From: an uncultured Lentisphaerota bacterium
GTDB taxonomy: Bacteria; Verrucomicrobiota; Kiritimatiellia; CAIQIC01
Direction of reading: 5' to 3'
DNA: 64,000 nucleotides
NCBI GenBank assembly: GCA_903896925.1
Contig: CAITZM010000190.1
Location: 14,920 to 78,919 of the forward strand
Below are positions 11,344-28,072 of this stretch, one piece after another. The notes beneath the pieces were generated by a model. That model searched no databases. It was not told the origin of the DNA and saw only the letters and a list, made by a program, of their open reading frames with translations. The stretch's first letter is position 1; each line of letters begins with the position of its first letter. The position numbers were made by a program, and so were the translations under genes.

Positions 11344-11405
11344 TCGACATCGGCCAAAATGCAGATACTATGAATGACGTTCTCTGCATTGCAAACCGAA
11401 ATTCA

Positions 11406-12359
11406 ATGAATACTGAATTCAACAAGATTCTGGTGACGGGCGCGCAAGGTTTTCTGGCTTCGCACATCATGCCGCTGCTGGGGCAGGCGTTCCCCTCCGC
11501 CCAGGTGGTCGGCGTGGGCCGGAAGGACTACGACCTGCTGGATGCCTGGGCGCCGGAACAGATGTTCAAGGACCTGCAGCCGGACTGCGTCGTGCATCTC
11601 GCCGCGAAATCCGGCGGCATCCTCGACAACCGCCATCGTCCTGCGGACTATTTCTACCAGAACCTCGCCATGAACACGGCGGTGTTGCATGAAGCCTACC
11701 GCGCGGGCGTGAAGAAATTCCTGACACTGATGGGCGGCTGCTCCTACCCCGCCAAGGCCGTCTCGCCCATCGGCGAAGACCAGATGTGGAACGGCTTCCC
11801 GCAAATCGACAGCGCCGGCTATTCCACGGCCAAGAAAATGCTGCTGGTGCAATCGTGGGCCTACCGGCAGCAGCACGGCTTCAATTCGGTCGTGCTGGTG
11901 CCCGGCAACGTGTATGGCGAGGGTGACAACTTCAACCTGACGCAGGCGCACGTCATCCCCGCGCTGCTGCGGAAGTACCTCGAAGCCAAGGAGCGCGGCC
12001 AGCCGGAGATCGTGGCCTTCGGCACCGGGCGGCCGACGCGCGATTTCGTCTATGCCGGCGACGTGGCGGCGACCATCCCGTGGTTCCTGAAAAACTACGA
12101 CAGCAGCGAGCCCATCAACATCTCCAGCGGCACGCGCATCACGATCAAGGAACTGGCGGAGACCATCAAGGCGGTGACGGGGTACGAGGGCCAGATTGTC
12201 TGGGATACGAAGCAGCCCGACGGCCAGATGGATAAAATCTACGATGTGTCGCGGCTGCATGCGCTGGGGCTGAACTGCCCGACGTCGCTCCGCGCGGGTC
12301 TGCAGAAGACGCTGACCTGGTTCCTCCGGGCGCGGACCGAAGGCCGGGTGCGGCTGTGA
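11406..12359 (+). CDS. GDP-L-fucose synthase-like NDP-sugar 3,5-epimerase/4-reductase (Fcl/ColC family SDR)
   Basis: ILVTGAQGFLASH, YDLLD, PDCVVHLAAKSGGI, GVKKFLTLMGGCSYP, YSTAKKML, VPGNVYGEGDNF. Start at MNTEFNK. Confidence 0.75.
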   Translation: MNTEFNKILVTGAQGFLASHIMPLLGQAFPSAQVVGVGRKDYDLLDAWAPEQMFKDLQPDCVVHLAAKSGGILDNRHRPADYFYQNLAMNTAVLHEAYRAGVKKFLTLMGGCSYPAKAVSPIGEDQMWNGFPQIDSAGYSTAKKMLLVQSWAYRQQHGFNSVVLVPGNVYGEGDNFNLTQAHVIPALLRKYLEAKERGQPEIVAFGTGRPTRDFVYAGDVAATIPWFLKNYDSSEPINISSGTRITIKELAETIKAVTGYEGQIVWDTKQPDGQMDKIYDVSRLHALGLNCPTSLRAGLQKTLTWFLRARTEGRVRL

Positions 12360-13015
12360 GGTTGCGCCAGGATCTCTGCCTCGACCGTTTCCAGCTCATC
12401 GGCGATTTGGTCCGGGGCAAGCGGGTCTTGGACATCGGCTGCGTCGAGCACAATGCGATCAACGCCGAGCGGAACTACTGGCTGCACGAATTCGTCCGCC
12501 GGAACGCGGCCGAAACGCTCGGGCTGGATGCCAGCGCCGACCAGATCAAGATCCTGCAGGGGAAGGGTTACAACGTCATCTGCGCCGATGCCACCAATTT
12601 TCACCTCCAGCGGACCTTCGACATGATCGTGGCCGGCGAGACGCTGGAACACCTGGCGAATGCCGGCGGCTTCATGCAGTGTGCGCGCGAACATCTGGCC
12701 AAGGACGGGCGCCTGATCCTGACCACGCCCAACGCCAACTGCTGGAGCTATTCGCTGGAGAACCTGCTGTTGGGGCATGAACTCGACAACGAGGATCACA
12801 TCGCCCTCTATACTCCGCGCACGATCACCAGCCTGCTCCAGCGCTATGGGTTTCAGGTGGAGCGTTTTGTTTTCATCGCGCAAAACACCGCCTACACCCA
12901 TGACAACCTGCTGATCAGGGGCCTGGTGCATCTGAAGCAGGCGGGCCAGGTGCTGCTCGGTCTGGTGCGCCCGAGCCTGTGCCAGCATTTTATGACGATC
13001 GCGAAACCGGTATGA
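12356..13015 (+). CDS. class I SAM-dependent methyltransferase
   Basis: VLDIGCVEH motif I and IVAGETLEHL post-I/II motifs. The GTG start overlaps the upstream stop (GTGA). Confidence 0.75.
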   Translation: MRLRQDLCLDRFQLIGDLVRGKRVLDIGCVEHNAINAERNYWLHEFVRRNAAETLGLDASADQIKILQGKGYNVICADATNFHLQRTFDMIVAGETLEHLANAGGFMQCAREHLAKDGRLILTTPNANCWSYSLENLLLGHELDNEDHIALYTPRTITSLLQRYGFQVERFVFIAQNTAYTHDNLLIRGLVHLKQAGQVLLGLVRPSLCQHFMTIAKPV

Positions 13016-13851
13016 GCCAGGGTACAGAGAAAAGTTGTCTGGTGCTGGGCGGCAAAGGGTTTGTCGGGTCGGCCATCGTCGCCGAGGCCCGGCGGCGCGG
13101 CTATCGGACGACCGTGGTGGACCAGGACGAATATGCGGCCACCGTCGGCACCGCCTGCGACCTGCTGATCAACGCGAACGGCAACTCCAAGAAGTTCCTC
13201 GCCACCCAGGATCCCAAGCTGGATTTCGACCTGTCCATCCGTTCCGTGGCGCGTTCGCTGCAGGACTTCAAGGCCGGGCGTTATGTGTTTCTCTCCAGCA
13301 TGGACGTGTACTACCCGCACGTCCGCCTGCCCGAGGAAAACGCCGAGACCGTGCCGCTCGATGCGGCCCGGCAGTCGCCCTACGGTTTTCACAAGGCGCT
13401 GGCGGAGCAGCTGGTGCGGTTCTACGCCCGCGACTGGCTGATCTTCCGCATGGCCGGTTTCATCGGCCAGGGCTTGTGGAAAAACTCCATCCATGACCTG
13501 CTGACCGGACAGCCGTTGCGGGTGCATCCCGATTCCAGCTACCAGTACCTGAACACCACCGCGCTGGCGTCCGCCGTGTTGGATATGGCCGCGAAGGCCG
13601 AGGCCCACAACGAGCTTTTCAACATCGCCGGCGAAGGGCTCGTCAGCCTGCGCGAGGTGGCCGGCTGGATCCCCGGCTGCCAGCTGCCGCCGGCCTGGGA
13701 CGCCCTGCCGCTGGAGCGCTACGAACTGAACACGGCCAAGCTGAGCCGCTGGACGGCGCTGCCGCCGACCCGCGACGCGGTGCGCGCGTTCGTGCAGGAC
13801 TGGCTGGCCACGCACGGCGCCGGTGCCGCAAGTCCCCGAGGTGCCTCATGA
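13012..13851 (+). CDS. NAD-dependent epimerase/dehydratase family SDR
   Basis: CLVLGGKGFVGSAIV Rossmann motif and YGFHKALAE (YxxxK). ATGA overlap with the upstream gene. Confidence 0.75.
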   Translation: MSQGTEKSCLVLGGKGFVGSAIVAEARRRGYRTTVVDQDEYAATVGTACDLLINANGNSKKFLATQDPKLDFDLSIRSVARSLQDFKAGRYVFLSSMDVYYPHVRLPEENAETVPLDAARQSPYGFHKALAEQLVRFYARDWLIFRMAGFIGQGLWKNSIHDLLTGQPLRVHPDSSYQYLNTTALASAVLDMAAKAEAHNELFNIAGEGLVSLREVAGWIPGCQLPPAWDALPLERYELNTAKLSRWTALPPTRDAVRAFVQDWLATHGAGAASPRGAS

Positions 13852-14825
13852 TCATCGCCCGCACTCCCTTCCGGGTCAGCTTCTTCGGCGGCGGCACGGA
13901 TTTCCAGGACCACTACACCCAGCACGGCGGCGCCGTCCTGCTGACGACGATCAACCAGTACTGTTATCTGTCCATCCACCGGCTCAGCCCGTTCTTCAAA
14001 CACCGCTTTCGCGCCAGCTACGCCCAGACGGAATCCGTGCTCAAGCCGGAAGAATTCCAGCACCCGCTGGTCCGCGAGTGCCTGCTGCACCTGGGCGTGC
14101 AGGAGGGCGTGGAAATTTCGCACGTGGCCGATCTGCCGGGCCGGACCGGGCTGGGCACCTCGTCCTCGTTCACCGTGGGGCTGCTGAACGCCCTCCACGT
14201 CTGGCGCGGCGAGCGTGTCACTGCGGAAGACCTGGCGCGGGAGGCGATCCATGTGGAGCGCGTGCGCGTCGGCGATACCGGCGGACATCAGGACCAATAC
14301 GCCGCGGCCTATGGCGGCTTCCTGCGCTTGGATTTTTCCGCCGGGCCACGGACCACGGTGCGCCAGCTCGCGTTGCCGGCCGCGCGGCTGCTGGAGTTGG
14401 AACAATGCCTGATGCTCTTTTACACGGGGATCGAGCAGTCGGCGGAAAACATCCTGACCCACCAGCGGCAGCGCACGGCGGATAACCTGCCCTACCTGCG
14501 GCAGATGCGGGACATGGTGGACGAGGCCGAGCGCATCCTCACCGACGGACAGGATATGGCCCACTTCGGACGCCTGCTGCACCACACGTGGGAACTGAAG
14601 AAGAAGCTGGCCCAAGGCATCAGCAATACGATCGTGGACCAGGCGTATGAAGCCGCCCGGAAGCACGGCGCCTTGGGCGGCAAGCTGCTCGGCGCCGGCG
14701 GACGCGGCTTCCTGTTGCTCTTCGCCCCGACGGATCGGCACGCCGCCATCCGCCAAGCCCTGCCGACCTTGCAGAGCGTGCCCTTCCGCTTCAGCAGCTG
14801 CGGCAGCGAGATCATTTTTCGTTAG
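13848..14825 (+). CDS. GHMP sugar kinase, HddA/fucokinase-like
   Basis: RTPFRVSFFGGGTDFQDHY...GGAVLLTTINQY, PGRTGLGTSSSFTVGLL (GHMP motif II), GGKLLGAGGRGFLLLF. ATGA overlap with the upstream gene. Confidence 0.8.
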   Translation: MIIARTPFRVSFFGGGTDFQDHYTQHGGAVLLTTINQYCYLSIHRLSPFFKHRFRASYAQTESVLKPEEFQHPLVRECLLHLGVQEGVEISHVADLPGRTGLGTSSSFTVGLLNALHVWRGERVTAEDLAREAIHVERVRVGDTGGHQDQYAAAYGGFLRLDFSAGPRTTVRQLALPAARLLELEQCLMLFYTGIEQSAENILTHQRQRTADNLPYLRQMRDMVDEAERILTDGQDMAHFGRLLHHTWELKKKLAQGISNTIVDQAYEAARKHGALGGKLLGAGGRGFLLLFAPTDRHAAIRQALPTLQSVPFRFSSCGSEIIFR

Positions 14826-14834: not shown

Positions 14835-16031
14835 ATGAGCGTTCGCAAGCCCAAAATCGCGCTCTGGTTCCGCTACGGCCCCGCCGAGCATTCCGAACTG
14901 TTCCACGCCATCCCGCAAATCGTCGAAGCTTTGTCCCGGCACGCCGAGGTCCACTATTACGGGTTGCGCTCCCGCAAACCGTTGCCGCCGGCGATCGCCC
15001 AGCATGCGGTGATCCATCAGCTGCCCTTTCACGTGCAGCGCTCGGATGCCCGCGACAAGCTCTGGAAGACGCTGCTCTGGATGGCCTGCCTGCCGTGGGT
15101 GGCCCTGCGCTGCCGGCTGACCGGCGTGCGGGCCGTATACATTGACGAGACGGTGCCCCTCACGGCGCCCATCGCCCGCCTGTTCTTCGGGTCGCGCGTG
15201 GCCTTCTCGGTCGTGGATTTCTTCCCGGAAATTTACTGGGGCGAAAAACCGGCGTTGCGCCCGCTGGTGCGCCTGATCCGCGCCCTGGATTTTGCGGCCT
15301 GGCGCCGGCTGCCCGTGCTGTTCACCCGCGCGCACGCCACGAAGGCCTATCTCAAGTCCAACGGCGTGGTGCCAGAACGGGTCTACCCGGTCTACGACCC
15401 CTGCGACTTTGAGGTCTATCACCCCGAAGACCGCGCGGCCGCCCGCCGGCGTTTTGGATACGGATCCGACGAGATCGTGCTGGTGCACCACGGCATCCTG
15501 CACCCCAACAAGGGCAATGACCGGATCCTGCGCGGTCTGGCCACGTTGAAGGCCGACTATCCCCAGCTGCGTTATCTGCTCGTGGGTGACGGCGCGGAAA
15601 TGGGCCGCCTCAAAGCGCTGGCCGCCGAACTGGGGCTGACCGACTGCGTCCAATTCACGGGCTGGCTGCCAAGCATGAAAGACGTCAACACGGCCTTGAA
15701 TGCGGGCGACATCGGGCTGGTCATGCGGGTGGGCATGAAGCATGACGATTTCCACGCCACCGGGGCCTTGGTGCACAGCATGGCCTGCGGCCTGCCCATT
15801 CTTTCCGCCCGTCTGGGCGGCACCTCGGAAATTGTGCGCGAGGGCCGCGAGGGGTTGCTCTTCGATCCGCAGGAAATGTCCGACTTCGCCGACAAACTGA
15901 AACAGTTGATCGCAGACCCGGGCTTGCGCGCAGCCTGCGGGGAACGCGCCTTGCAGCGGGCGCACGAACTCTTCGCCATGGAGCGGGTCACCCGCGACAC
16001 GGTCGAGCCCCTGCTGACCCTGCTGCGCTGA
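14835..16031 (+). CDS. glycosyltransferase family 4 (GT-B)
   Basis: C-terminal GT1/GT4 signature: LLVGDGAEMGRLKALAAELGL...VQFTGWLP, ACGLPILSARLGGTSEIVREGREGLLFDP. Confidence 0.85.
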   Translation: MSVRKPKIALWFRYGPAEHSELFHAIPQIVEALSRHAEVHYYGLRSRKPLPPAIAQHAVIHQLPFHVQRSDARDKLWKTLLWMACLPWVALRCRLTGVRAVYIDETVPLTAPIARLFFGSRVAFSVVDFFPEIYWGEKPALRPLVRLIRALDFAAWRRLPVLFTRAHATKAYLKSNGVVPERVYPVYDPCDFEVYHPEDRAAARRRFGYGSDEIVLVHHGILHPNKGNDRILRGLATLKADYPQLRYLLVGDGAEMGRLKALAAELGLTDCVQFTGWLPSMKDVNTALNAGDIGLVMRVGMKHDDFHATGALVHSMACGLPILSARLGGTSEIVREGREGLLFDPQEMSDFADKLKQLIADPGLRAACGERALQRAHELFAMERVTRDTVEPLLTLLR

Positions 16032-16046
16032 CCGGCCGCGCCGCCG

Positions 16047-17549
16047 TCAGAACATCAGCTTCTTGTCACCAAAGAACCGGTCCTTGTGCATCAGGATCCA
16101 TTTGATGGCGCGGTATTCCAGCGGCAGCACGAAACACCCTGTGGAGATGCGAAAGCGGCTGAGCTGATACATGGCGCGCTCGGCGAGCAGGGCCGGCCAC
16201 AGCAAATATTTGGGCGCCACGGCCTTGACCACGTTGCGTGCGTGGCCCGCCAGGAACATGAAGTAGATGGACGCCGCGTCCGTGAACTGCACGTATTTCA
16301 AGGGAATCCACGGGGCGGTGTGCGCGTGGAACTCGTATTGCGTCCAGCCTTCCAGGCTCGTCGGCGACCGGTAGCCCAGCTTTTCAGCCTCGGGCAGGAA
16401 ATGGGTGCCGGGCAGGGGCGTGTAGGCAAACAGATGGAACTGCGAAACCAGCCCGGTCTTGCGCAACTTGTTGATGAAGCCCAGCGTCGACTTGAAGTCC
16501 TCCTCGATGGGCGCCCCCGGGACGCCGATGATGAAGGAACACTGCACCCGGATGCCGTGCTTGTGCAGGCGCGGCAGCACCTCCAAGGTGTCGTTGACAC
16601 TGGCGCCTTTGCTCATGAGCGCCAACGTATCGTCGGAACCGGATTCCACACCCAGGAAAATATCCTGCAGCCCCGACTCGCGCATCAAGGCAAACGTCTC
16701 GTCCTTGTATTTCCGGAGCTGATCCGGCCGGCCCGAGGTGCCACCCCACGTCAGCTTCAGCGGTTTCAACCGCTCGCAAAACTCGATCACGCGCTTTTCG
16801 TTGACGTAGAAATTGGAGTCGGAAATGGTCACGCCGTCGAAGTGATATTTTTCCTTGAGCGTGACGATGTCGTTGATGATGCGGTCCACCGTCAGGCTGC
16901 GCCAGCGCCGGTGGTACAGCGCCTCTTCGCCGCAAAATTTGCAGTTGCCGGTGCAACCTTCCGAGGTGAGATAGTAGAGGGTTTTTTCCGCAAAACTGGT
17001 CTTTACCAGGTACTCTTCGAAATTGGGCAGCAGGTGATAGGGGATGGGCGGAAATACATTCAGGTCCTCCCGCGCCCGGGGGGTGGTGAAGACCATCTGT
17101 CCATCGCGCTTGAAGCCCAGCCCGGCGATGCCCGCCAGCTCGCGCTCCTCCGCGACCGCTGCGACCAGTTCGGAAAAGGTCCGCGGCCCTTGCCCGATGA
17201 CCACGACATCGACCAGGGGATGGGTCAGCGTCTGCTCCGGCAGCAGCGTGGGATGGCAGCCGCCGCAGACCAGCAAGACCTTCGGGTTCGCCTCTTTGGC
17301 GAGCTTGGCGGCCTCCAGCATCGTGCTGATTTGAAAGCCCGTCATGCAGGTGATGCCACAGATATCGGCCTCGCGGGCGGCTTCCTGGATATGCTGCGCG
17401 AACTGCTTGTCGTGCCAATCCAGCACGGTGATCTGGTGCAGGCTGCTATCCACCATGGCCAACGTCGACAACACGGACAACGGCGGCCCGTCATAGGGCA
17501 TCTTGGGCGAGGCCATCGGATTGATCATCAAGATCCGTAGTTTTTTCAT
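16047..17549 (-). CDS. B12-binding-domain radical SAM protein (class B), paralog 1
   Basis: N-terminal flavodoxin-like region (ICGITCMTGFQ, LLVCGGCHPTLLPE), then CTGNCKFC (CX3CX2C) and FLGVESGSDDTL. Confidence 0.85.
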   Translation of the reverse strand: MKKLRILMINPMASPKMPYDGPPLSVLSTLAMVDSSLHQITVLDWHDKQFAQHIQEAAREADICGITCMTGFQISTMLEAAKLAKEANPKVLLVCGGCHPTLLPEQTLTHPLVDVVVIGQGPRTFSELVAAVAEERELAGIAGLGFKRDGQMVFTTPRAREDLNVFPPIPYHLLPNFEEYLVKTSFAEKTLYYLTSEGCTGNCKFCGEEALYHRRWRSLTVDRIINDIVTLKEKYHFDGVTISDSNFYVNEKRVIEFCERLKPLKLTWGGTSGRPDQLRKYKDETFALMRESGLQDIFLGVESGSDDTLALMSKGASVNDTLEVLPRLHKHGIRVQCSFIIGVPGAPIEEDFKSTLGFINKLRKTGLVSQFHLFAYTPLPGTHFLPEAEKLGYRSPTSLEGWTQYEFHAHTAPWIPLKYVQFTDAASIYFMFLAGHARNVVKAVAPKYLLWPALLAERAMYQLSRFRISTGCFVLPLEYRAIKWILMHKDRFFGDKKLMF

Positions 17550-17618
17550 GACTGTCCCCTGGCGCGTCCCTGTCGAAATTCAAAACCAATGCACGTATGG
17601 ATCATATCGCCACCGCGG

Positions 17619-18953
17619 CTATACAGATGCAGGCGATCCTTTGACCTGCTGGGCATCGGGTTTCAAGGGGCGCTTCCCGGCTGCGCCATCGCTCTCCTTC
17701 GCTCCGCTCATCACCCAGTCCATGCCGAAGGCCGCGAGGATACCGAGCCCGACTTGAAAAACCTGCAGGAACTTGATCGGGGCCCGGATGTTGTTCACCA
17801 CAGGCAAATGATAGAAAAGTTGATACAAGGGGGAGAACTTTCCCATCGCCAGCAGCAGGGCGATGAGCGTGGCGCAGCCCCAGAAGATGACCTCCGCCCG
17901 CCGTTCCGCTCCGCCGGGCGCAGCCGCGGGAGCGCCGGCGGCGGCCTCCCGCCAGCGCCAGGCGGCGAAGCAGGCCAACAGCGCGAAAGCGACCGGGATG
18001 ATGCCCAGATACCAATCGTCCAGCTTGAAATTCATGAACCCCTGCCCGGTCTGTTCCCAACCGGCCGAGCGGCCCAGCCGGCCCCAGTAGGGCCCGGCGG
18101 GCTCGCTGCTGCGCCAGCCGAGATAACCCGGCGCCATCAGCGCCATCGCTTCATCGGGCGGGAAACTCCACTGGGTTACAAAGTCCCATTTGACGGCAGG
18201 ATCTTCGGCGGTGGTGGTCGCCACGTTCTGGATGTTATGCGTATAGCCTTGGAGCAGGGAAGGAATCGCGGGCCAGGCCGCCATGAGGCCCATCGGCACC
18301 AGGAAGGTCGCCACACGTTGCTGCCAGGACACCGTCGTCATGCGGAAGAGCATGAACACGGCATAAGCGCCGATGAACATGCCGAAGAACAAGCCCACAT
18401 CCTGCTGCTCCACCAGGGCGAAACCCACGGCGCCACCCGCCAGCAGCGCCCACGCCCGACCATGCGTGCCCGTCATGTTCTTGATGCAGAGCAAGGCCAG
18501 GGAGCCGAAGAGCAGCACGGAGAATTTCGGGATGTGACCGCCGTAGGTCAGCGCCAGATTGCTGGAGCACCAAAAAGCCACCAAGGCGCCCAGCATCGAG
18601 CTGGCCCGTGAGCAGCCCATCCTGCGCAGCAGACCGAACAGCAGCATGGCCGCCAGCGCCAGCGTTACGGCGTGCACCACATTGACGAACTGCGGCAGCG
18701 GCAAGGCCGTCAGCAGGGCGCTGGTCCAGTTCAGCGGCACCCGCCCGATCCCGTTGCCCAGCAGGCTGCTGTCATCCCACCAGCCCAGGAAGGTCGCCGG
18801 CAAACCGCGCGCGCACCCGCTCAGCAGGCCGATGTTGTCATCGGTGGAAAACAGGACCACACCGCCCTGCATCAAGGGATACCAGATGGCGAACATCAGC
18901 ATCGCCCCCAGCACCACAGCAATCACCAAGCTGCTTTTTTTGTGGTTGTTCAT
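17619..18953 (-). CDS. polytopic membrane protein, possible GT-C/YfhO-like glycan transferase or polymerase
   Basis: At least 10 hydrophobic segments and a large loop (TTTAEDPAVKWDFVTQWSFPPDE). Sits between a GT4 and a rSAM gene. Start at MNNHKKSS. The family assignment is tentative. Confidence 0.5.
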   Translation of the reverse strand: MNNHKKSSLVIAVVLGAMLMFAIWYPLMQGGVVLFSTDDNIGLLSGCARGLPATFLGWWDDSSLLGNGIGRVPLNWTSALLTALPLPQFVNVVHAVTLALAAMLLFGLLRRMGCSRASSMLGALVAFWCSSNLALTYGGHIPKFSVLLFGSLALLCIKNMTGTHGRAWALLAGGAVGFALVEQQDVGLFFGMFIGAYAVFMLFRMTTVSWQQRVATFLVPMGLMAAWPAIPSLLQGYTHNIQNVATTTAEDPAVKWDFVTQWSFPPDEAMALMAPGYLGWRSSEPAGPYWGRLGRSAGWEQTGQGFMNFKLDDWYLGIIPVAFALLACFAAWRWREAAAGAPAAAPGGAERRAEVIFWGCATLIALLLAMGKFSPLYQLFYHLPVVNNIRAPIKFLQVFQVGLGILAAFGMDWVMSGAKESDGAAGKRPLKPDAQQVKGSPASV

Positions 18954-19017
18954 GGGCTCACGTCCTGCGTCGGACCGCACGATACCATCATTCTGTTTCC
19001 TGTAAACTCCGAATGGC

Positions 19018-20253
19018 CTAGCCTGGGGTGGCCCGCCCGGCCTTGCTTCCCCCAACTTCAGACAACAAGCGCTCGAACAGCAGGCGGTAGTTACGTCCGC
19101 TGACCGCCCAGGACTGTTCGTCGGTCAGCTGGCGCTCATGTTCGGCCACCTGATCGAACCAGGCCTGAGGTTTCTTGCCAAACTCCACCAATTGCTGCCG
19201 CAGGGCCGCCACGTCCCCCGGCGGGGACAGCAGCCCCAGCTCCCGGGTCCGGACCATTTCGCCGATAAAGAACTGATCCGTGGCGATGACCGCCCGGCGA
19301 AACTCCAAGGCCAGACGGAAGTTCCCGCTGGTGGAAACGAACCCCCACCGATACGGCAGGATGACGGCATCCGTCGCCGTGAAAAAGTCGCTCATCTCCG
19401 CATCCGAGACATGGCGCGGCACAAAGTGGAGGTGATCCTTCCAGGGCCCTTCCAGCAAATCGCGCGCGCCGGTCCGGGGATCGCCGTAGATGCCACCGAC
19501 CAGGCCCACCATATACAGGTCGAAGGTCGGCTCCAGCCCGCGGAGCGCCTCCAGCAGCAAATCCTGGCCCTTGAGCCAGCTGGCCACCCCGAAGGAAAGG
19601 AGCATGCGGCTGGAGGGCGGTATGCCCAGGCGCTGCCGGCTTTGCGCGCGCGCCTCCGGCGGCGGCGCGACATCGTGATAGCCATCGAGGAGCACGGTGC
19701 ACTTTTCGCCCGCCCGCCGGCGGAAGAACTGCGGCACGTGCGCATTGTCGAAAATGACGTTGATGAGCGGACACAGGAACCACACCGCCAGATGATTCAA
19801 CCAGCCGCGGGCGCGGGTTTTGAACGAGTATTGACTGGTCTTCCCCAGGTGCCGGTAGACCGTGGTCGTGAACATGGACACGGCCGGCCGCTGGCGTTTG
19901 CGGTTGCGCAGCCAGACGATCGGCAGCAGGGTCCAGGGCTCCGGATGCGAAAAGAAAAGAATGTCGGCGCCTATTTTGCGGGCCAGGGCGAAGGCGCGCC
20001 ACTGAATGCGGGCCGGTCGGACGATGAACTCCCAAAGGTTGGGCAGGCCACGCTGGTTGCCGGAACTGTCCGCGGACAGCTCATCGACCACGATTTCACA
20101 GCCCATATCCTCGAAATAGCGGCGTTCCTCAGGGCGGGAAACCATCAGCACGACTTCCAAGCCGGCAGCCAGCATACCGCCGGCGCGCTGGCGTGTGGCC
20201 CAGGGGGCGTCCGAATTGATCGCCAGCCCCGGCGTGCAGTAGAGAACCTTCAT
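19018..20253 (-). CDS. glycosyltransferase (GT4-like, GT-B fold)
   Basis: MKVLYCTPGLAINSD... N-terminal domain and C-terminal ...AVILPYRWGFVSTSGNFRLALEFRRAVIATD. ATGA overlap with the upstream gene's stop. Confidence 0.7.
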   Translation of the reverse strand: MKVLYCTPGLAINSDAPWATRQRAGGMLAAGLEVVLMVSRPEERRYFEDMGCEIVVDELSADSSGNQRGLPNLWEFIVRPARIQWRAFALARKIGADILFFSHPEPWTLLPIVWLRNRKRQRPAVSMFTTTVYRHLGKTSQYSFKTRARGWLNHLAVWFLCPLINVIFDNAHVPQFFRRRAGEKCTVLLDGYHDVAPPPEARAQSRQRLGIPPSSRMLLSFGVASWLKGQDLLLEALRGLEPTFDLYMVGLVGGIYGDPRTGARDLLEGPWKDHLHFVPRHVSDAEMSDFFTATDAVILPYRWGFVSTSGNFRLALEFRRAVIATDQFFIGEMVRTRELGLLSPPGDVAALRQQLVEFGKKPQAWFDQVAEHERQLTDEQSWAVSGRNYRLLFERLLSEVGGSKAGRATPG

Positions 20254-21464
20254 CCACGGTTCCCGACCGTGCCCTGCTTGGCCGCGCGCACGACCGCGCA
20301 GATCTTCTCCACATCGGCGCCCAGAAGCGATTGGTTGTTGGGCAGGAAGAAACCGCAGTGATACAGCCGGTCGGCCATGGGCGCGGAGAACGTGCCGTAC
20401 CGGTCGCTCCAGAACGGATGCCGGCCGAGGTTGCCCGCCGTGAAGATCCGGGTGTCGATCTTGTGTTCATCCAGCGCGGTCACGATCCGGCGGCGCTCCT
20501 CGGACGACTGCGCCAGGGCGCAGAAGGAAATGCTGCTGATGATGTCGCCGGGCAGCCCGGGCGCGAAATCGACCACGCCTTGCAACTGCTGTTGATAGAT
20601 CTTGTGGTTGGCGATCCGCCGCTCGATGGTGGCGTCCAGTTTCCGCAGCTGGATCAGGCCCAGCTTGGCGTTGATGTCGGTCGGCCGCAGGTTGTAACCG
20701 GGCACGACGAAGGTAAACGGTGCGCGGAAGGGATCGACCTTGTACAGCTCCATATAGCGCGCAGCCTCCTGAGGCGGGAGGTCTTTGAGCCAGCCGTGGC
20801 TGCGGCCCATCAGCAGGTGGAAGTACAGCTGCTCGTCATCGGTGCAGACGACGCCGCCCTCCACCGTGGACATGTGGTGGCCGTAGTAGAACGAAAAAGA
20901 GGACAGGTCGCCGAACGTGCCGACGAGCCGGCCTTGATGGCGCGCGCCGTGGCTGGCGCAGCAATCCTCCATGATCTTGAAGCCGTATTTCTTCTGCAGC
21001 GCCAGCAGGGCCGTCATGTCGCACGGCACGCCGAGCACCTGCACGAGGATGATGGCGTCGGGCCGCTCGCGCTTCAGGATTTCTTCCAGACAGGTGAGAT
21101 CCATGCCGAAGGTGCGGGCATCCGATTCGCACATGATGGGCTGCCAGCCGAGTTGCAGGGCCGGCATCAGCGTCGTGGCCCAGCCGGTCGTCGGCACCAC
21201 GATTTTTTTGGCGGCCACCTTGCGCGAAGTTTCCAACGCCGCATACATCAACAGGTTGGCCGACGAGCCGGAATTGCACATCACGGCGTATTTCACACCC
21301 AACCAGCGGGCCCAGGCGGCCTCGAATTCACGCGTGACATCCGCCATGGTCAGGCGCGGATACGCTTTCATCCAATCCATCAGCTCCGTCAGATCCGCAT
21401 CGCTGATCGTATCCACGGCCAGGTCATACCGTTGACTATGAAATACTGTCGAACTCATGCACAC
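20250..21464 (-). CDS. DegT/DnrJ/EryC1 fold enzyme of the ColD/E1 type (NDP-4-keto-6-deoxyhexose 3-dehydratase-like)
   Basis: Fold-type I sugar aminotransferase architecture (MCNSGSSANLL, DCCASHG). The Schiff-base Lys position is His: FSFYYGHHMSTVEGG, compared with SFHxxK....GEGG in true aminotransferases. Confidence 0.75.
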   Translation of the reverse strand: MCMSSTVFHSQRYDLAVDTISDADLTELMDWMKAYPRLTMADVTREFEAAWARWLGVKYAVMCNSGSSANLLMYAALETSRKVAAKKIVVPTTGWATTLMPALQLGWQPIMCESDARTFGMDLTCLEEILKRERPDAIILVQVLGVPCDMTALLALQKKYGFKIMEDCCASHGARHQGRLVGTFGDLSSFSFYYGHHMSTVEGGVVCTDDEQLYFHLLMGRSHGWLKDLPPQEAARYMELYKVDPFRAPFTFVVPGYNLRPTDINAKLGLIQLRKLDATIERRIANHKIYQQQLQGVVDFAPGLPGDIISSISFCALAQSSEERRRIVTALDEHKIDTRIFTAGNLGRHPFWSDRYGTFSAPMADRLYHCGFFLPNNQSLLGADVEKICAVVRAAKQGTVGNRG

Positions 21465-21571
21465 CTCAATTTAATGGGCGGAAACCTAGTTTATTGTCCT
21501 TGGAATGTCAAAACGAACCGTACACGCACACCCCTGCGGTCCGCACCGGAAAAACACGCGCCGGTGTGGGC

Positions 21572-22549
21572 TCAAGGCGCCAGCAGGGCGACGGCTTGCC
21601 CGGCGATCTGTTCGGGCCCCAGCCCCACCGCGGCCAGCAGGCTGTCGCGGCCGCCAATATCGAAACGATAGTGATGCGGCAGGCCCAACCCCTTGAAGCG
21701 CGTCTGGCCTGCGACAGGCCAGAGTATTTCCCGCAGGGCGGCGTCCAAGCCGCCCTTGCCGACAAAACCTTCCTCCAAGGAAAGAACGGCCGGGCAGCCG
21801 GCCAAGGCGGCGCCCAACGCCTGGCCATCCAAAGGCGACAGGGCCATGATATCGATCACCGCCGCCTGCACGCCCTGCTGTTGCGCCAGAAGATCAGCCG
21901 CCTCCAAGGCTTTGTGCACCATGTAGCCGGTGGCGACCAGCGTCACACCCTGGCCGCGCCGCAGAAAACGGAACCCTTGGCGCAGTTCAGCCACCGTAGG
22001 CGCCTCGGCGACATCCGGCAATTCCTTGCCATCCATCCTCAGGTAGCGGATGCCGGTTTCCGGCAACAGCTGCTGAGCGAGGACGCGCGCCGTGGCGCTG
22101 TCCGCCGGCGAGTAGACGCCGAGGTTGGGCAGCACCCGCATGATGGACAAATCTTCCAGCGCCTGATGTGTGGGGCCGGACACATCATAGCTGTAGCCGG
22201 CGCCGACGCCGGCCAGCGTGACGTTCATCGGGCGCACCTGCGAGAGCAGGCACAGGTTCACGCGCACCTGCTCGTAACAACGCATGGTCAGAAACGGCGC
22301 GATGGCATAGGCCACCACCGCATGCCCCTCCAGGGCCAATCCGGCGGCGACGTTGATCAGGTTTTGCTCGGCAATGCCCACATTGATGAACCGCTCTGGG
22401 AAACGCTGCGCCAGGATATCCAGCTTGGGCGAACCGAAATCTGCGGACAGGAAGATGAGCGACGGGTCGGCGGCCATCCGCTCCGTGACCGCCACGATGA
22501 AGGCGTCCCGCATTCTGGTTTTAATGAGCGCCGGCATAGTCACCTGCAA
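21572..22549 (-). CDS. transketolase, C-terminal (pyrimidine-binding) subunit
   Basis: RDAFIVAVTERMAADPSLIFLSADFG, FINVGIAEQNLINVAAGLALEGH. Overlaps the end of the N-terminal subunit gene. Confidence 0.88.
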   Translation of the reverse strand: MQVTMPALIKTRMRDAFIVAVTERMAADPSLIFLSADFGSPKLDILAQRFPERFINVGIAEQNLINVAAGLALEGHAVVAYAIAPFLTMRCYEQVRVNLCLLSQVRPMNVTLAGVGAGYSYDVSGPTHQALEDLSIMRVLPNLGVYSPADSATARVLAQQLLPETGIRYLRMDGKELPDVAEAPTVAELRQGFRFLRRGQGVTLVATGYMVHKALEAADLLAQQQGVQAAVIDIMALSPLDGQALGAALAGCPAVLSLEEGFVGKGGLDAALREILWPVAGQTRFKGLGLPHHYRFDIGGRDSLLAAVGLGPEQIAGQAVALLAP

Positions 22550-23348
22550 GGAGTCGGTCGATTTCGCCAGCCGGCACGCTCAACACATGGCTGATCGGGC
22601 TGGCTTCCAGGGAAGGCACGCCATGCCCCTTGATCGTGTTCGCAATCAGGGCGACGGGTTGTCCCGCAGGCTCCCGGCCGATGGCAGACAGGCGCGGGTG
22701 CAGCGCCGCCAGGTCGTGGCCGTCGCACTCTTCGACGCGCCAGCCGAAGGCCTTCAATTTTTCCGCCAAGGGCGCGAGGGTCACGACGCAGGCGGTGTCG
22801 TTGAGCATGCAACGCGAATTGTTGTCCACGATCAAGGTCAGGTTGCCCAGCCGATGATGGCCGGCGAACATGATGGCCTCCCACACCGCCCCCTCGTGCA
22901 GTTCGCCGTCGCCCACCAGCACCCACACGCGGTTCGACGAGTGGCGCCGTTGCAGGGCCAGCGCCATGCCGCACCCCACGCCGAGACCATGCCCGAGCGA
23001 GCCGTTGACGGTCTCGTAGCCGGGAATCACCGGATCCGGAATGCCGCCGAGAAAGGAGCCGGGCCGGCAGACCTGCTCCAGTTCCGACAGCGGAAAAAAG
23101 CCCAGATCCGCCAGGATGGGATAGAGGGCGATCGAGCCATGCCCTTTGCTGACGATCAGCCGGTCACGGCCCTCCCAGAGCGGTTCCTTGGGGGAAAAAC
23201 GCAGGATGTCCCCGTAGTACAGACACACCAGCGCCTCCACCGGCGAGAGCGAGGAGGCCACGCGCGTTTCCGGGGCGCGCTTATGGATCAGCAACGTCTG
23301 TTGCCAAACCCAGCGCGCCTTTGCCTGCAATTCTGCCAAAGTCATCAT
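22521..23348 (-). CDS. transketolase, N-terminal (ThDP-binding) subunit
   Basis: SLSPVEALVCLYYG, DRLIVSKGHGSIALY, GSLGHGLGVGCGMALA, LVGDGELHEGAVWEA, VDNN. Start at MMTLAEL (23348). Confidence 0.88.
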   Translation of the reverse strand: MMTLAELQAKARWVWQQTLLIHKRAPETRVASSLSPVEALVCLYYGDILRFSPKEPLWEGRDRLIVSKGHGSIALYPILADLGFFPLSELEQVCRPGSFLGGIPDPVIPGYETVNGSLGHGLGVGCGMALALQRRHSSNRVWVLVGDGELHEGAVWEAIMFAGHHRLGNLTLIVDNNSRCMLNDTACVVTLAPLAEKLKAFGWRVEECDGHDLAALHPRLSAIGREPAGQPVALIANTIKGHGVPSLEASPISHVLSVPAGEIDRLLAGDYAGAH

Positions 23349-23597
23349 CGGAACATCGTTTCTAAAGCCCGGCACCCTTCCCTCCGGCCGGTGGACCCGA
23401 ATCCGCCGCCCGCCCTCGCTTCCGGCCTGCACCCGGGTGCCGGACGCTTGCGCCACTACACAGGGCACAGCAGTCCGCATAACACACTCCATTTGACCGT
23501 GCAAGACCTTATAGAACTTGACAATGCCCGCCTGCGCAGCAATGTATACCCCCTACCGCCTCAGAAGCCAGCGCGGGGCTGGCCCTGGCGCAGAGCC

Positions 23598-24953
23598 ATG
23601 ATGGATGCCGAACCAAGAGATTCGTCGAATATGATCACCGCCAACTTTATCGTGCCGTCGCTCTTTTACTGGAACCAGCCCTTCAAACAGCAGCCGCTGA
23701 CACAACTTTACCTCGCCAGCATCGTCGACGAGCATTTCCAAGGCCGGCAGATCCAGACCAAGGTCACCGACCTGCGCGGTCTGAACCCCGCGGAACTGCA
23801 TCTCCACATCGCCGAGCCCAGCGAGCTGTTTCTCTACAGCATCGCTTCGCCAGATTTCCGGGAGGTGTTCGCCCTCGTCGAAATCCTGCGCAAGAAATTT
23901 CCGGGCGCCAAACACATCGCCGGCGGCGCGCATGTCAACATCTTCCCGGAAGAAACCGCGCGGGTCTTCGACTGCGTCGTCAGCGGGAGCGGCGAGAAAT
24001 CGCTCATCCAGCTGCTGGAGGATTTCCTGCGCGGCGACCTGAAGCGCAGCTACGAGCTGGACCCCGACTACGCCCACACCCGCTATCCCTTCCCCCGCCG
24101 GCACTACCTGCCGCGCGAGAAGATCGTGCGCGACAACCTGATCAAATGCGCCCCGGGCGTGCTGTCCACCTCCACCCTCTTCTCGCACGGCTGCCCGTTC
24201 ATCTGCGGCTTCTGCGCCAACTACAACCGGCGCAAAAGCGTCCGGCGCTCCAACGCGGAGATGGCGGCGGAGATCGAATACCTGCAGGCCAACTATGGCG
24301 TCACGGGCCTGGCGATGCTCGACGAGATCTGCATCCCGCTGATCGAGGCCGAGTCACGGCCCTACCTGGAGACCCTGAAAAAGTACAAGGTCCTGTGGCG
24401 CGGCCAGTCCCGCGTGGGCATCCAGCCCGACGTCCTGAAGCTGGCCCGCGAGGCCGGCTGTCTCGAGCTCAACCTGGGCGTCGAGAGCGTGTCGGAAAAG
24501 GTCATGGAGATCGTCAAGAAGCGCATCAAGGTCGAAGACGTCAAGGCGATGATCAAGAACTGCAAGGCGAACGACATCAAGGTGTACATCAACCTGGTGA
24601 ACGGCCTGCCGGGCGAGCCGAAGAACATCGTGCAGATGACCAAGGACTTCATCGAGGAAACGCAGCCCGACCTCGTCAACCTCTTCTCCCTGTGCCTCTA
24701 TCCCGGCTCGCCGATCGCCGAGCACCCGGAAAGATACGGCATCGACCCAACCACCGTACAGAAGGACTACCACCGGATGAACCACCTCGTCCGGCGGTTC
24801 AAGGACAGCCAGGCCCAGGACGACGCCGAGGAAATGGTGCTGTTCTCCTACCAGGCGGAAGGCCCCTTCGGCCCGGCCTTCTCGCGCGAGGAAATCCTGG
24901 CCAATTACGAGAACTTGCAGGAATTCGTCATCAGCCGCGGACTGAACAAGTAG
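23598..24953 (+). CDS. B12-binding-domain radical SAM protein (class B), paralog 2
   Basis: Only the C-terminal 451 codons of the 866-aa listed ORF look coding. They contain HIAGGAHVNIFPEE, CPFICGFC (CX3CX2C) and NLGVESVSEKVM. An alternative ATG lies at 23631. Confidence 0.85.
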   Translation: MMDAEPRDSSNMITANFIVPSLFYWNQPFKQQPLTQLYLASIVDEHFQGRQIQTKVTDLRGLNPAELHLHIAEPSELFLYSIASPDFREVFALVEILRKKFPGAKHIAGGAHVNIFPEETARVFDCVVSGSGEKSLIQLLEDFLRGDLKRSYELDPDYAHTRYPFPRRHYLPREKIVRDNLIKCAPGVLSTSTLFSHGCPFICGFCANYNRRKSVRRSNAEMAAEIEYLQANYGVTGLAMLDEICIPLIEAESRPYLETLKKYKVLWRGQSRVGIQPDVLKLAREAGCLELNLGVESVSEKVMEIVKKRIKVEDVKAMIKNCKANDIKVYINLVNGLPGEPKNIVQMTKDFIEETQPDLVNLFSLCLYPGSPIAEHPERYGIDPTTVQKDYHRMNHLVRRFKDSQAQDDAEEMVLFSYQAEGPFGPAFSREEILANYENLQEFVISRGLNK

Positions 24954-24978
24954 ACTGCACTGCCGGCTGGGCGGACGG

Positions 24979-25028
24979 TTTCCATGGCCTGGAAAGACCC
25001 GAAATTCAGGCTCCAAGCCTCGGGAAAC
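24979..25028. repeat. TTCCA-N-TGGAA hairpin repeat array (family A), 2 units
   Basis: TTTCCATGGCCTGGAAA (centre 24987) and CTCCAAGCCTCGGGAA (centre 25018), 31 bp apart, just downstream of the rSAM-2 stop. Confidence 0.7.
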
Positions 25029-25264
25029 TATGGGACGCGGGCGCGTCCGCCTGTGCGTTGACGAGGGTAAGTCTTTCTATTAAGGTAAACGCGCAGTTCA
25101 ATCCGCCTGGCTGGCGCACGGGGTGTTGCGTAGCGGAAGCGCCGGTGCCGGTGCGGATTAATGCTTAGGGCCCGGCCGGGATGTCGAGCCGATGGCCAGA
25201 ACAGACGGCAAGCCGTTGCTTTGGATGCGCCGAAACCAGGCAGTGAAATGTATTTAGCGATGGG

Positions 25265-27112
25265 ATGCGGAGCAGCATGAGAATTCTTCTGATCGTAGCC
25301 ACCCACCGGTACAAATATTCGTACCCGGCCTTTCTCTCGATCACCGACTTCCCCGCCGGCATCGCCTACGTGGCCTCCGCCCTCCAGCAGGCCGGACACG
25401 AGGTCATGGGGCTCAACCCCAACAACGACAGCTCCTATCCCAGCGCCCGCGCCATGCTGGAGGACAAAATCCAGAAGGCGGTGCACGATTTCCAGCCGAC
25501 GCTGATCGCGCTCGGCGGCATCTGCATCGACTACGCCTTCTTCAAGGACGCCATCGCCCTCTGCCGGCAGTACGCGTCCGCGGTGCCCATCGTCTGCGGC
25601 GGCGGCATCATCACCAACGACGCCGCCTTTGTGTTCGAGACCTTGCACCCCGATTTTTGCATCGTCAGCGAGGGCGAGGAGGCCATGGTCCGGCTGGCGC
25701 ATGCGCTGGAAAAGGGCGGGGGCTTTGACCACATACCGAACATCGGCTATTGGCGGGGTCAGGAAGCCGTCTTCACCAAGACCGACTTCAATTACGGCGC
25801 CATCGACCAGCTCGCGTTCCCCAACTACGAGATCTTCGACATCCGCGACATGATGGACGGGTACGCCATGGCGGCGCGCAGCCTCTACCGCTATCCGCGG
25901 ACGCACCCGCGGCCCATGACGATCGTGACGGCGCGCAGCTGCCCGTTCCGCTGCACCTTCTGCGTGCACCATCGCGGCCCGCAGTACCGGGCGCGCTCGG
26001 TGGCGAACATCATGGCGGAGCTCCGGGAATCCTACGAAAAATACCGCTTCAACGTCCTGATCATCCTCGACGAGCTGTTTGCCGTGAACAAGGCCCGGAT
26101 GCAGGAGTTCTGCACCGCCCTCAGCGAGGGCCGGCGGGAGTACGGCTGGGATTTCGACTGGTCCTTCCAGACCCATGCCGTCGCCGCGCTGGACGTGCCG
26201 ACGCTGAAGATGGCCAAGGCGGCCGGCTGCTACCTCTTCGGCTACGGGGTGGAAAGCGCCAGCCCGCGGGTCCTCGCCAGCATGAACAAGCGCAGCAAGC
26301 CCGAGCAGATCGCGGCCGGGATCGCGGCCGCCGCGGAGGCGGAGGTGGGTTTCGGCGGCAACTTCATTTTCGGCGACGTGGCCGAGACGACCGACACCAT
26401 CCGGGAATCCATGGATTTCTTCTGGAAGCACTGCCGGGACATCAACCTCAACATGATCTCCATCCAGCCCTACCCCGGCAGCAAGCTGTTCGAAGACTGC
26501 CGGGAGCGGGGCATCATCGGCGACAAGCTGAAATTCTACGAGACCATCAGCGAGCACATCTGGAACATGACCACCATCCCGGACCGGCTGTGGTTCCCCT
26601 GGGTGCACATGCTGTACCTGTTCTCCAACACCGCACCCTGGCTCAAGTCCACGGACGCCGTTGAGTTCGAGGTCGAGACGGACGGTGAGCCGGATCCGGT
26701 GGCGCGGTTCTACGGCAAACGGATGTGCCGGATCAGCGCGGTGTGCCCGCATTGCGGGAAAAAATCCACCTATCGCGAACTGCTGGCCGATGCGCCGCCG
26801 GCCCCGCAGCAGGCGCAGCCCCGCCGCAACCCGCTGGCGGGCCTCAAGAGCCTGGCCGGCAGCCGCTACCAGCGCATGGTCCTCCAGGCGGCCCTCGTCA
26901 ACGCCTTCCACTATCTGCTGACGTTCCGGCATCCGCTGTTCCGTACCCTGCAGAACCTCTACGGCGAGACCAAGAGCAACCAGAATTTCACGACCGGCTG
27001 CAAACACTGTCACCGGCACATCAAGATCTACATCCCCAAGCAGGAATTCAAAGACAAGCTGGCGTTCCAGGCGAAAAAGCTGATCGCGAAAACGCTGAAC
27101 TGGGCCCGCTGA
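25265..27112 (+). CDS. B12-binding-domain radical SAM protein (class B), paralog 3, with Cys-pair C-terminal extension
   Basis: PIVCGGGIITND, CPFRCTFC (CX3CX2C), GYGVESASPRVL. The C-terminal roughly 150 aa carry CPHCGKK ... CKHCHRH. Confidence 0.85.
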   Translation: MRSSMRILLIVATHRYKYSYPAFLSITDFPAGIAYVASALQQAGHEVMGLNPNNDSSYPSARAMLEDKIQKAVHDFQPTLIALGGICIDYAFFKDAIALCRQYASAVPIVCGGGIITNDAAFVFETLHPDFCIVSEGEEAMVRLAHALEKGGGFDHIPNIGYWRGQEAVFTKTDFNYGAIDQLAFPNYEIFDIRDMMDGYAMAARSLYRYPRTHPRPMTIVTARSCPFRCTFCVHHRGPQYRARSVANIMAELRESYEKYRFNVLIILDELFAVNKARMQEFCTALSEGRREYGWDFDWSFQTHAVAALDVPTLKMAKAAGCYLFGYGVESASPRVLASMNKRSKPEQIAAGIAAAAEAEVGFGGNFIFGDVAETTDTIRESMDFFWKHCRDINLNMISIQPYPGSKLFEDCRERGIIGDKLKFYETISEHIWNMTTIPDRLWFPWVHMLYLFSNTAPWLKSTDAVEFEVETDGEPDPVARFYGKRMCRISAVCPHCGKKSTYRELLADAPPAPQQAQPRRNPLAGLKSLAGSRYQRMVLQAALVNAFHYLLTFRHPLFRTLQNLYGETKSNQNFTTGCKHCHRHIKIYIPKQEFKDKLAFQAKKLIAKTLNWAR

Positions 27113-27952: not shown

Positions 27953-28072
27953 GCGGAGTTTATAGCAGAAAATCGGCGCCTCCACAAAACCGGCGACGCA
28001 GATCGGACCGATCCGACGGATCCGGCCGATCCTGCGGCGGCGTTGCCCCCTTCACCCGCCACCCGCACCGCG

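Follow-up and report, generated by a model that had tools for sequence, protein, structure and literature searches.

Three class-B-type radical SAM enzymes and a putative C-branched deoxysugar pathway in a surface-glycan locus of an uncultured Kiritimatiellia bacterium

B12-binding (class-B) radical S-adenosylmethionine (SAM) enzymes are known chiefly from antibiotics, cofactors, lipids and protein modification. What three of them do among sugar genes is the question raised by a 64,000-nucleotide stretch of DNA from an uncultured Lentisphaerota bacterium (contig CAITZM010000190.1, positions 14,920 to 78,919), referred to here as the window. The three genes, designated rSAM1, rSAM2 and rSAM3, lie in a surface-glycan locus of ~17 kb (about 10.1-27.1 kb of the window), which is bounded by recA (8836-9945) and a SpoU-type RNA methyltransferase gene (27134-27985) and shows a mild dip in GC content, 61-64% compared with 65-68% in the flanks. 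An earlier interpretation made from the letters alone (the sequence-only reading) had taken the three for paralogs that might carry out iterative C-methylation or other radical tailoring of a sugar, lipid or glycoside. The analysis described here points to radical tailoring, most likely by C-methylation, of a C-branched deoxysugar destined for a surface glycan, and we give this reading a probability of about 55%.

The three genes are real, and all the motifs previously quoted were found in their translations: LLVCGGCHPTLLPE, CTGNCKFC and GVESGS in rSAM1, HIAGGAHVNIFPEE, CPFICGFC and GVESVS in rSAM2, and PIVCGGGIITND, CPFRCTFC and GVESAS in rSAM3 (positions in Table 1). Each product combines the CX3CX2C motif with a Pfam Radical_SAM domain (PF04055; 75.3, 65.3 and 45.1 bits for rSAM1, rSAM2 and rSAM3, respectively; gathering cutoff 29.5). 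The N-terminal cobalamin-binding-type domain that had been proposed for all three is recognized by Pfam in rSAM1 and rSAM3 (B12-binding, PF02310; 65.1 and 47.9 bits; cutoff 32.1), whereas in rSAM2 it is sub-threshold by sequence and is supported by a fold-level match to class-B structures and to AprD4. AlphaFold models of rSAM2 and rSAM3 were made from family alignments (predicted local distance difference test scores of 88 and 85, respectively) and both place an N-terminal α/β domain before a radical SAM barrel. Foldseek aligned the two models over their full lengths, rSAM2 with AprD4 first (template modelling (TM) score 0.68 in both directions), followed by MgmA, TsrM, CysS and TokK, and rSAM3 with TsrM, AprD4, MgmA, OxsB, CysS and TokK. 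The Pfam domains, the confident models and the full-length Foldseek matches together confirm that all three are genuine two-domain enzymes, in which a B12-binding-type Rossmann domain is followed by a [4Fe-4S]/SAM barrel. Transmembrane segments are predicted in none of them. By sequence, the best match of rSAM1 in the Protein Data Bank (PDB) is MgmA (9CCB, 2e-16), a methyl-coenzyme M reductase (MCR) glutamine C-methyltransferase, and TokK is also matched; the top match of both rSAM2 (3.5e-7) and rSAM3 (4.5e-12) is AprD4, at 17-19% identity.

rSAM3 has a further feature in its C-terminal extension. Residues 494-582 (window 26744-27010) contain a CPxC motif and, ~80 residues on, a CxxC motif, and the four cysteines (C494, C497, C579 and C582) are invariant in the family. 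They lie on β-hairpins in the AlphaFold model, and no such cysteines occur in rSAM1 or rSAM2. The set looks like a metal site, putatively of the zinc-ribbon or rubredoxin-like type.

The enzymes are distant from one another and from characterized families. Pairwise identity within the trio is 23-27%, and when 35 such enzymes from 16 related loci (designated below by L and a number) were clustered at ≥33% identity, they fell into at least 12 subfamilies, with rSAM1, rSAM2 and rSAM3 in three separate ones. The term paralogous thus holds at the level of the superfamily and not in the sense of close paralogs; the identities and the separate subfamilies rule out recent paralogy. Likewise, three copies in one locus are unusual compared with characterized systems, but multi-copy class-B sets recur in the metagenome loci, where up to 4-5 such enzymes are found per locus. 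None of the three scored at the curated cutoff of a named NCBIfam family (BchE, HpnJ, HpnR, PhpK, KedN5, MCR glutamine methyltransferase, TsrM-type, BzaD and the methylases of ribosomally synthesized peptides with post-translational modifications (RiPPs)). The best scores were 133 bits to BchE (cutoff 481) and 119 bits to HpnJ (cutoff 578) for rSAM1, 83 bits to TIGR04013 (cutoff 251) for rSAM2 and 106 bits to PhpK (cutoff 600) for rSAM3. Membership of the AprD4 family (NF033070, cutoff 500) was rejected as well, since rSAM2 scored 41.9 and rSAM3 51.3 bits, and for rSAM1 this family was not among the best 25 listed.

The most informative neighbours of the trio are a ColD-type 3-dehydratase and a split transketolase, both absent from the sequence-only reading. 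The dehydratase gene encodes a DegT-fold protein whose top 7 PDB matches are all 3-dehydratases, led by ColD/WbdK (2GMS, 1.7e-52) and followed by E1 (3BCX) and then 9WVY. The catalytic Schiff-base lysine is replaced by histidine (FYYGHHMS, compared with FYSHHIA in ColD), the first histidine of GHH corresponding to ColD His188. This replacement and the nearest structures rule out an aminotransferase, and the protein is not an RfbH equivalog because its score to that NCBIfam model, 196.7 bits, is below the cutoff of 423. Histidine also occupies the lysine position in the closest DegT-fold gene of all seven ortholog loci checked, one beside an rSAM1 ortholog (L006, which holds a second DegT-fold copy of the lysine type) and six beside orthologs of rSAM2 or rSAM3 (L008, L009, L010, L093, L094 and L095). 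The best PDB match of the transketolase N-terminal subunit is the corresponding component of a split-chain transketolase (6YAK, 4e-46), and the NCBIfam transketolase match of the second subunit spans model positions 320-624. The Pfam domains of both subunits exceed their cutoffs, and the two genes, on separate polypeptides, give a split-chain transketolase of predicted activity.

Orthologs of all three enzymes lie in sugar or glycan neighbourhoods, in other phyla as well, and not consistently in lipid, pigment or other non-glycan contexts. The rSAM1 family is small, with ~31 clusters at ≥44% identity, all of them metagenomic and the named ones from Kiritimatiellia. A GHMP kinase and a GDP-fucose-synthase-like reductase each accompany rSAM1 orthologs in 4/5 loci, and a family 1 glycosyltransferase (GT1) stands beside rSAM1 or its orthologs in the window, L004, L006 and L173 (33% identity to the window's convergent GT1 in L006, 55% in L004). 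Next to rSAM1 orthologs, a family 2 glycosyltransferase (GT2) is often translationally coupled, and membrane proteins of PMT/STT3/YfhO-like type adjoin. An HpnI/HpnJ-like pairing was considered for the coupled GT2 but found no support, the nearest relatives being MftF and exopolysaccharide glycosyltransferases with no HpnI match listed; the GT2 of L174 has only a weak HpnB match (35 bits; cutoff 379).

The strongest association is that of rSAM2. A split thiamine diphosphate (ThDP) enzyme adjoins its orthologs in all of the ten loci with adequate flanks, the cultured Geomonas limicola (L008) included, compared with 7/105 for other class-B relatives (Fisher p = 2.6e-10); this background consists mostly of distant relatives, at 24-34% identity, from scans of genome and metagenome contigs. 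The ThDP enzyme is of the transketolase type, a full-length E1 α/β-like pair or a truncated E1 α/β-like pair, and the recurrent gene order is ThDP-α, ThDP-β, short-chain dehydrogenase/reductase (SDR), rSAM2. rSAM3 belongs to a large family (~50% identity, with several hundred matches at E ≤ 1e-3). Its orthologs are accompanied by a ThDP pair in 4/5 loci, and also by His-type DegT, GDP-fucose-synthase-like, Wzm/Wzt, Wzx and NeuB/CMP-transferase genes.

The gene set is read as one that makes a C-branched 3,6-dideoxy sugar because the combination of a ColD-type dehydratase and a split transketolase with reductases, glycosyltransferases and a membrane protein mirrors published branching logic. In yersiniose synthesis, a pyridoxamine phosphate (PMP)-dependent 3-dehydratase gives a nucleoside diphosphate (NDP)-4-keto-3,6-dideoxyhexose, to which a ThDP enzyme then adds a carbon branch at C4, and the same route has been proposed for erwiniose and caryophyllose (PMC9306805). 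In paulomycin, avilamycin and kosinostatin, C4 of the deoxysugars receives a two-carbon chain derived from pyruvate, which is attached by pairs of E1 α/β-like proteins (PMC4802897). The logic shared with yersiniose, erwiniose and caryophyllose and with paulomycose/eurekanate comprises the 3-dehydratase, the ThDP-dependent C4 branch, an NAD(P)H reductase and the delivery of the product into lipopolysaccharide (LPS) or another glycan. The locus differs from the yersiniose type in having a split transketolase (a truncated E1 α/β-like pair in sister loci) instead of YerE/ErwE, which resemble acetohydroxyacid synthase (AHAS), and a 3-dehydratase that is ColD-like, not E1/E3. No AHAS-like (YerE-type) ThDP enzyme was found among the scanned locus genes, the one present being of the transketolase type; the resemblance is one of logic and not of family membership, as a YerE-type carboligase with a YerF reductase is not what the locus offers. 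The branched-sugar pathways of both publications are without class-B radical SAM enzymes.

A second comparison is provided by the colitose pathway. Two genes of the locus have ColD and GDP-L-fucose synthases as their nearest homologs of solved structure, and the catalytic histidine of ColD is kept. ColC is related to GDP-fucose synthase, and ColC itself was not among the matches. Compared with colitose synthesis, the window contains no GDP-mannose 4,6-dehydratase or guanylyltransferase and has in addition an HddA-like kinase, the transketolase and the three radical SAM enzymes.

From the domain architecture, the gene identities and the conserved neighbourhoods we infer a substrate, an order of steps, methylation and the use of cobalamin, as follows. 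The sugar would be activated by the HddA/fucokinase-like GHMP kinase and by a nucleotidyltransferase encoded outside the window. The ColD-type PMP-dependent 3-dehydratase would then yield an NDP-4-keto-3,6-dideoxy sugar, and the split transketolase would place a two-carbon unit on its C4 carbonyl, in the manner of the E1 α/β-like pairs or of YerE. The GDP-fucose-synthase-like and RmlD-like reductases would fix the stereochemistry, and the two GT1 enzymes together with the polytopic membrane protein would place the sugar in the surface glycan. rSAM2 and rSAM3 would remove hydrogen from unactivated carbons, either of the sugar or of its side chain, with cobalamin-mediated C-methylation, as in GenK and Fom3, the most likely outcome. 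rSAM1 is placed at or after the glycosyl-transfer stage, where it may act on a lipid-linked sugar, because its orthologs are coupled to genes for GT2 and for GT-C-type proteins.

The analogy with GenK and GenD1 of gentamicin synthesis and Fom3 of fosfomycin synthesis makes C-methylation the most likely reaction. These share the B12-type Rossmann domain and the radical SAM barrel with its CX3CX2C motif, and several may serve one pathway. A further shared feature is the likely target, unactivated sp3 carbons in a sugar or in a side chain of the hydroxyethyl type. The setting differs, as the trio is part of a surface-glycan locus of an uncultured bacterium of the Planctomycetes-Verrucomicrobia-Chlamydiae group and not of an antibiotic cluster, and it is accompanied by a 3-dehydratase and a split ThDP enzyme. 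The likeness to GenK and Fom3 is drawn from what is known of those enzymes and not from a direct alignment, and the trio scores far under all named NCBIfam cutoffs.

Several results weigh against this reading. No methylase family, and no other named NCBIfam family, is reached at its cutoff by any of the three enzymes. AprD4, the solved structure nearest to rSAM2 by fold and the top PDB sequence match of both rSAM2 and rSAM3, is a sugar diol dehydratase and not a methylase, so the iterative C-methylation of the sequence-only reading goes beyond the evidence. AprD4 is reported not to bind cobalamin; it shows that the fold can exist without this cofactor. The B12-binding score of rSAM2 is 25.8 bits, below the Pfam cutoff, and neither a cobalamin riboswitch in the 64-kb window nor cobalamin transporter or biosynthesis genes among its scanned ORFs were found. 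The proposed pathway is also incomplete as encoded in the window, since a nucleotidyltransferase was not detected there (tblastn with two references) and the domain and family scans of the window's open reading frames (ORFs) gave no clear 4,6-dehydratase; an NTP_transferase gene is present within the cluster in the relatives L004, L006 and L008. Carboligation of a keto sugar by a transketolase is an extrapolation because the documented C-branching enzymes are of the YerE or E1 α/β type. Finally, the locus counts (10/10 for rSAM2, 4/5 for rSAM1 and rSAM3) are small. The loci counted lack phylogenetic independence, and the window itself is one of them.

The position of rSAM2 and rSAM3 near AprD4 makes a non-methylating reaction a serious rival. 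The sugar substrate and the pathway would be kept, and at least one of the trio would catalyse 1,2-diol dehydration or deoxygenation (AprD4-like, possibly without cobalamin), epimerization, or a ring contraction or rearrangement of the kind known for HpnJ, OxsB and BchE; we consider this possible, at clearly less than an even chance. AprD4 (6FD2), the radical SAM 1,2-diol dehydratase of apramycin synthesis, has an N-terminal Rossmann-like domain, acts on a sugar substrate and at ~450 residues is similar in length to rSAM2. Its first rank in the PDB searches with rSAM2 and rSAM3 and in the fold comparison of rSAM2, the sub-threshold B12-binding domain of rSAM2, and the best NCBIfam matches of rSAM1, neither of which (BchE and HpnJ) is a methylase, all favour such a reaction, and a glycolyl or dihydroxyethyl branch derived from transketolase would present a 1,2-diol. 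However, the AprD4 family model gives only 42-51 bits against its cutoff of 500, the cobalamin-dependent methylases TsrM, MgmA, CysS and TokK match the models nearly as well (better in the case of rSAM3), and the top rank of AprD4 may partly reflect its similar length and the small number of class-B structures. AprD4 also differs in its pseudodisaccharide substrate and in its reductase partner AprD3, whereas the partners of the trio are ThDP and NDP-sugar enzymes. Characterized class-B enzymes are, moreover, mostly methylases.

The substrate itself may be asked about in the same way. That the trio acts on a lipid, whether a polyprenyl carrier, a glycolipid anchor or a membrane lipid, with the sugar genes as mere neighbours in an envelope-biogenesis island, appears improbable. 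The coupling of rSAM1 orthologs to GT2 and the flanking PMT/STT3/YfhO-like transferases, which depend on lipid carriers, would fit such a role, as would sub-threshold matches of all three enzymes to HpnJ, HpnR and a ladderane-type lipid radical SAM family. The partners most tightly and specifically associated with rSAM2 and rSAM3, namely the ThDP pair, SDRs and the 3-dehydratase, are, however, soluble enzymes that act on nucleotide sugars, the trio lacks predicted transmembrane segments, and lipid-synthesis genes were not found in the locus. Maturation of a ribosomal peptide or modification of a protein, with a coincidental location among glycan genes, is very improbable. MgmA, the best PDB match of rSAM1, acts on a protein, and sub-threshold NCBIfam matches to ApyD, rSAM_ocin_1 and the MCR glutamine methyltransferase point in the same direction, but every ortholog locus examined has a glycan-type neighbourhood, no credible small ORF occurs in or around the operon, and genes for a protease, a transporter or RiPP recognition are absent from its surroundings. 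The earlier observation that no RiPP precursor ORF lies nearby is borne out by the rSAM2-rSAM3 gap (24954-25264), 311 bp of non-coding sequence with 65% GC whose ORFs are of chance size only (21-39 codons) and which has no Rfam match; RiPP-associated Pfam domains were not found in the neighbouring genes. The sugar genes on either side agree with the earlier placement of the trio in a glycan locus and with its preference for a non-peptide substrate. A phosphonate pathway, prompted by matches to PhpK/Sden_1168 and by the small split ThDP pairs, was considered and rejected. Pfam gave no PEP_mutase domain in the scanned window genes or in any Pfam-annotated ortholog locus, and the small ThDP pairs of the ortholog loci match the E1 α/β models of pyruvate dehydrogenase and not Ppd or ComDE (phosphonopyruvate and sulfopyruvate decarboxylases).

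The arrangement of the locus is given in Table 1. Its gene map was derived from a codon-position GC filter together with Pfam and NCBIfam and is consistent; the near-identical metagenomic contig L001 was the source of the probable start codons. Because the GC content is ~65%, most long ORFs in the window are spurious, and an ORF of 866 codons at 22353-24953 was rejected as a high-GC read-through. The plus-strand operon encodes the GDP-L-fucose-synthase-like reductase, the class I methyltransferase, the RmlD-like SDR, the GHMP kinase and a GT1. The minus-strand operon comprises the two transketolase subunits, the DegT-fold protein, a GT1, the polytopic membrane protein and rSAM1. The remaining two radical SAM genes, rSAM2 and rSAM3, make up a unit of their own that diverges from the transketolase.

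Table 1 Genes of the surface-glycan locus, with positions in the window.
Product	Position	Strand	Evidence and remarks
LarA-like protein (nickel-pincer-dependent 2-hydroxyacid racemase/epimerase family)	10150..11343	-	Pfam Lar_N, LarA_C; NCBIfam malate racemase 136 bits (cutoff 462)
GDP-L-fucose-synthase-like (GFS-type) epimerase/reductase, NDP-4-keto-6-deoxy sugar	11370..12359	+	NCBIfam GDP-L-fucose synthase 266 bits (cutoff 500)
Class I SAM methyltransferase	12356..13015	+	Pfam Methyltransf_23 81.6 bits
Divergent RmlD-like SDR	12979..13851	+	Pfam Epimerase 54.6 bits, RmlD_sub_bind; 45% identity homolog in L004
GHMP sugar kinase, HddA/WcbL/fucokinase-like	13848..14825	+	Pfam GHMP_kinases_N and _C; NCBIfam HddA 136 bits (cutoff 600)
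GT1/GT4-family glycosyltransferase, convergent with rSAM1	14835..16031	+	Pfam Glycos_transf_1 87.8 bits
rSAM1, B12-binding domain and radical SAM enzyme, 500 residues	16047..17549	-	End gene of the minus-strand operon
Polytopic membrane protein, no Pfam family, possibly GT-C-like	17619..19055	-	478 residues; 444 as called on L001
GT1/GT4-family glycosyltransferase	19018..20253	-	Pfam Glycos_transf_1 35.4, Glyco_trans_1_4 35.5 bits
ColD/E1-type PMP-dependent NDP-4-keto-6-deoxyhexose 3-dehydratase, DegT fold	20250..21464	-	PDB matches; His for Lys
Split transketolase, pyrimidine-binding and C-terminal subunit	21572..22549	-	Pfam Transket_pyr 84.4, Transketolase_C 56.2 bits
Split transketolase, N-terminal (ThDP-binding) subunit	22521..23504	-	Pfam Transketolase_N 104.8 bits; divergent from rSAM2
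rSAM2, Rossmann-like N-terminal domain and radical SAM enzyme	23598..24953	+	Probable start ~23631, 440 residues (as on L001)
rSAM3, B12-binding and radical SAM enzyme, C-terminal extension with four invariant Cys	25265..27112	+	615-residue ORF; probable start 25277, 611 residues (as on L001)

The GDP-L-fucose-synthase-like product matches GDP-L-fucose synthases of the PDB at 5.5e-58 and has homologs of 64-72% identity in L004 and L006. The GHMP kinase matches the heptose-phosphate kinases 3K85 (6.6e-40), 4USK and 4N3O, and its homologs in L004, L006 and L008 are 47-63% identical. The polytopic membrane protein has at least seven hydrophobic segments and a loop motif, FSTDDN. It is 42-45% identical to the N-terminal half of 822-residue proteins that adjoin rSAM1 orthologs and whose C-termini give weak YfhO matches, and to the same degree to a 463-residue protein directly upstream of the rSAM3 ortholog of L170. 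Membership of the YfhO family was rejected, as the protein has no Pfam match and the weak YfhO signal of the longer homologs comes from a C-terminal region not present here; for these reasons it is described only as possibly GT-C-like. The LarA-like gene stands at the edge of the locus, divergent from the sugar operon, and is shared by the near-identical L001 and not by ortholog loci at a greater distance. The window showed no genes for LarB, LarC or LarE, and the place of the LarA-like protein in the pathway is uncertain. Beyond the locus (29928-34516, minus strand) lie genes for a CHASE8/HAMP hybrid histidine kinase, a YfiR/HmsC-like protein and a TonB-dependent receptor; nothing marks the receptor as BtuB, since no cobalamin riboswitch precedes its gene.

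Some of the ortholog loci show features of their own. In L170 (2709-17592), an arn-like locus (of the lipid A aminoarabinose type) surrounds the rSAM3 ortholog together with an SDR and an E1-like ThDP pair and contains genes for a GT2, PMT_2, an ArnA-like formyltransferase/epimerase, an ArnD-like polysaccharide deacetylase and a DMT_6 flippase-like protein; the GT2 has a weak ArnC-type match (45 bits; cutoff 529). rSAM2 orthologs of 37-46% identity, with a ThDP pair and an SDR, occur on the low-GC (28-42%) contigs L175, L236 and L239, which IMG/VR classifies as viral, and another is found on L172, a compact contig that carries numerous small overlapping ORFs besides PDDEXK and HNH genes. These four contigs may represent phages, prophage-adjacent islands or genomes of the candidate phyla radiation or DPANN. 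In G. limicola (L008, BLXZ01000004.1), a 1117-residue fusion of B12-binding, Radical_SAM and HemN_C domains is encoded at 12809-16162. Its gene lies directly downstream of those for the rSAM2 ortholog and a further class-B enzyme, in an operon that also contains a galactarate-dehydratase-like gene, DJ-1, a cupin and an aldo-keto reductase. Relatives of the fusion protein recur in L093, L094 and L171.

Several class-B radical SAM subfamilies thus occur together with SDRs, a split ThDP enzyme and a 3-dehydratase in a module that recurs across phyla in surface-glycan loci and of which no description was found in the searched literature. The carriers are Kiritimatiellia, Omnitrophota and Geomonas and, judged from named homologs only, probably DPANN archaea. 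Nor did the searched literature yield a description of class-B radical SAM enzymes in an O-antigen, LPS, capsule, polysaccharide or branched-sugar setting, an absence that is not proof, and a review from 2026 on radical SAM enzymes that depend on B12 nowhere uses the words polysaccharide, glycan, sugar or aminoglycoside.

More tentatively, the module may represent a widespread pathway, in which a split ThDP enzyme of the transketolase or E1 α/β type sets a two-carbon branch on an NDP-4-keto-3,6-dideoxy sugar and a variable toolkit of class-B radical SAM enzymes (at least 12 subfamilies in 16 loci) then methylates or rearranges it, possibly iteratively. rSAM2 would be the obligate partner of the ThDP enzyme, and the products would be heavily C-alkylated surface sugars of uncultured anaerobes. 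If the recurrent combination does produce deoxysugars that are both C-branched and C-methylated, radical carbon-carbon chemistry would reach the envelope glycans of poorly known phyla, and radical SAM subfamilies of unknown function would gain a substrate class open to experiment; one at least of these subfamilies, that of rSAM3, is large. The enzymes would also offer new biocatalysts for the alkylation of sugars, and the G. limicola locus provides a cultured carrier of the gene combination that is open to testing.

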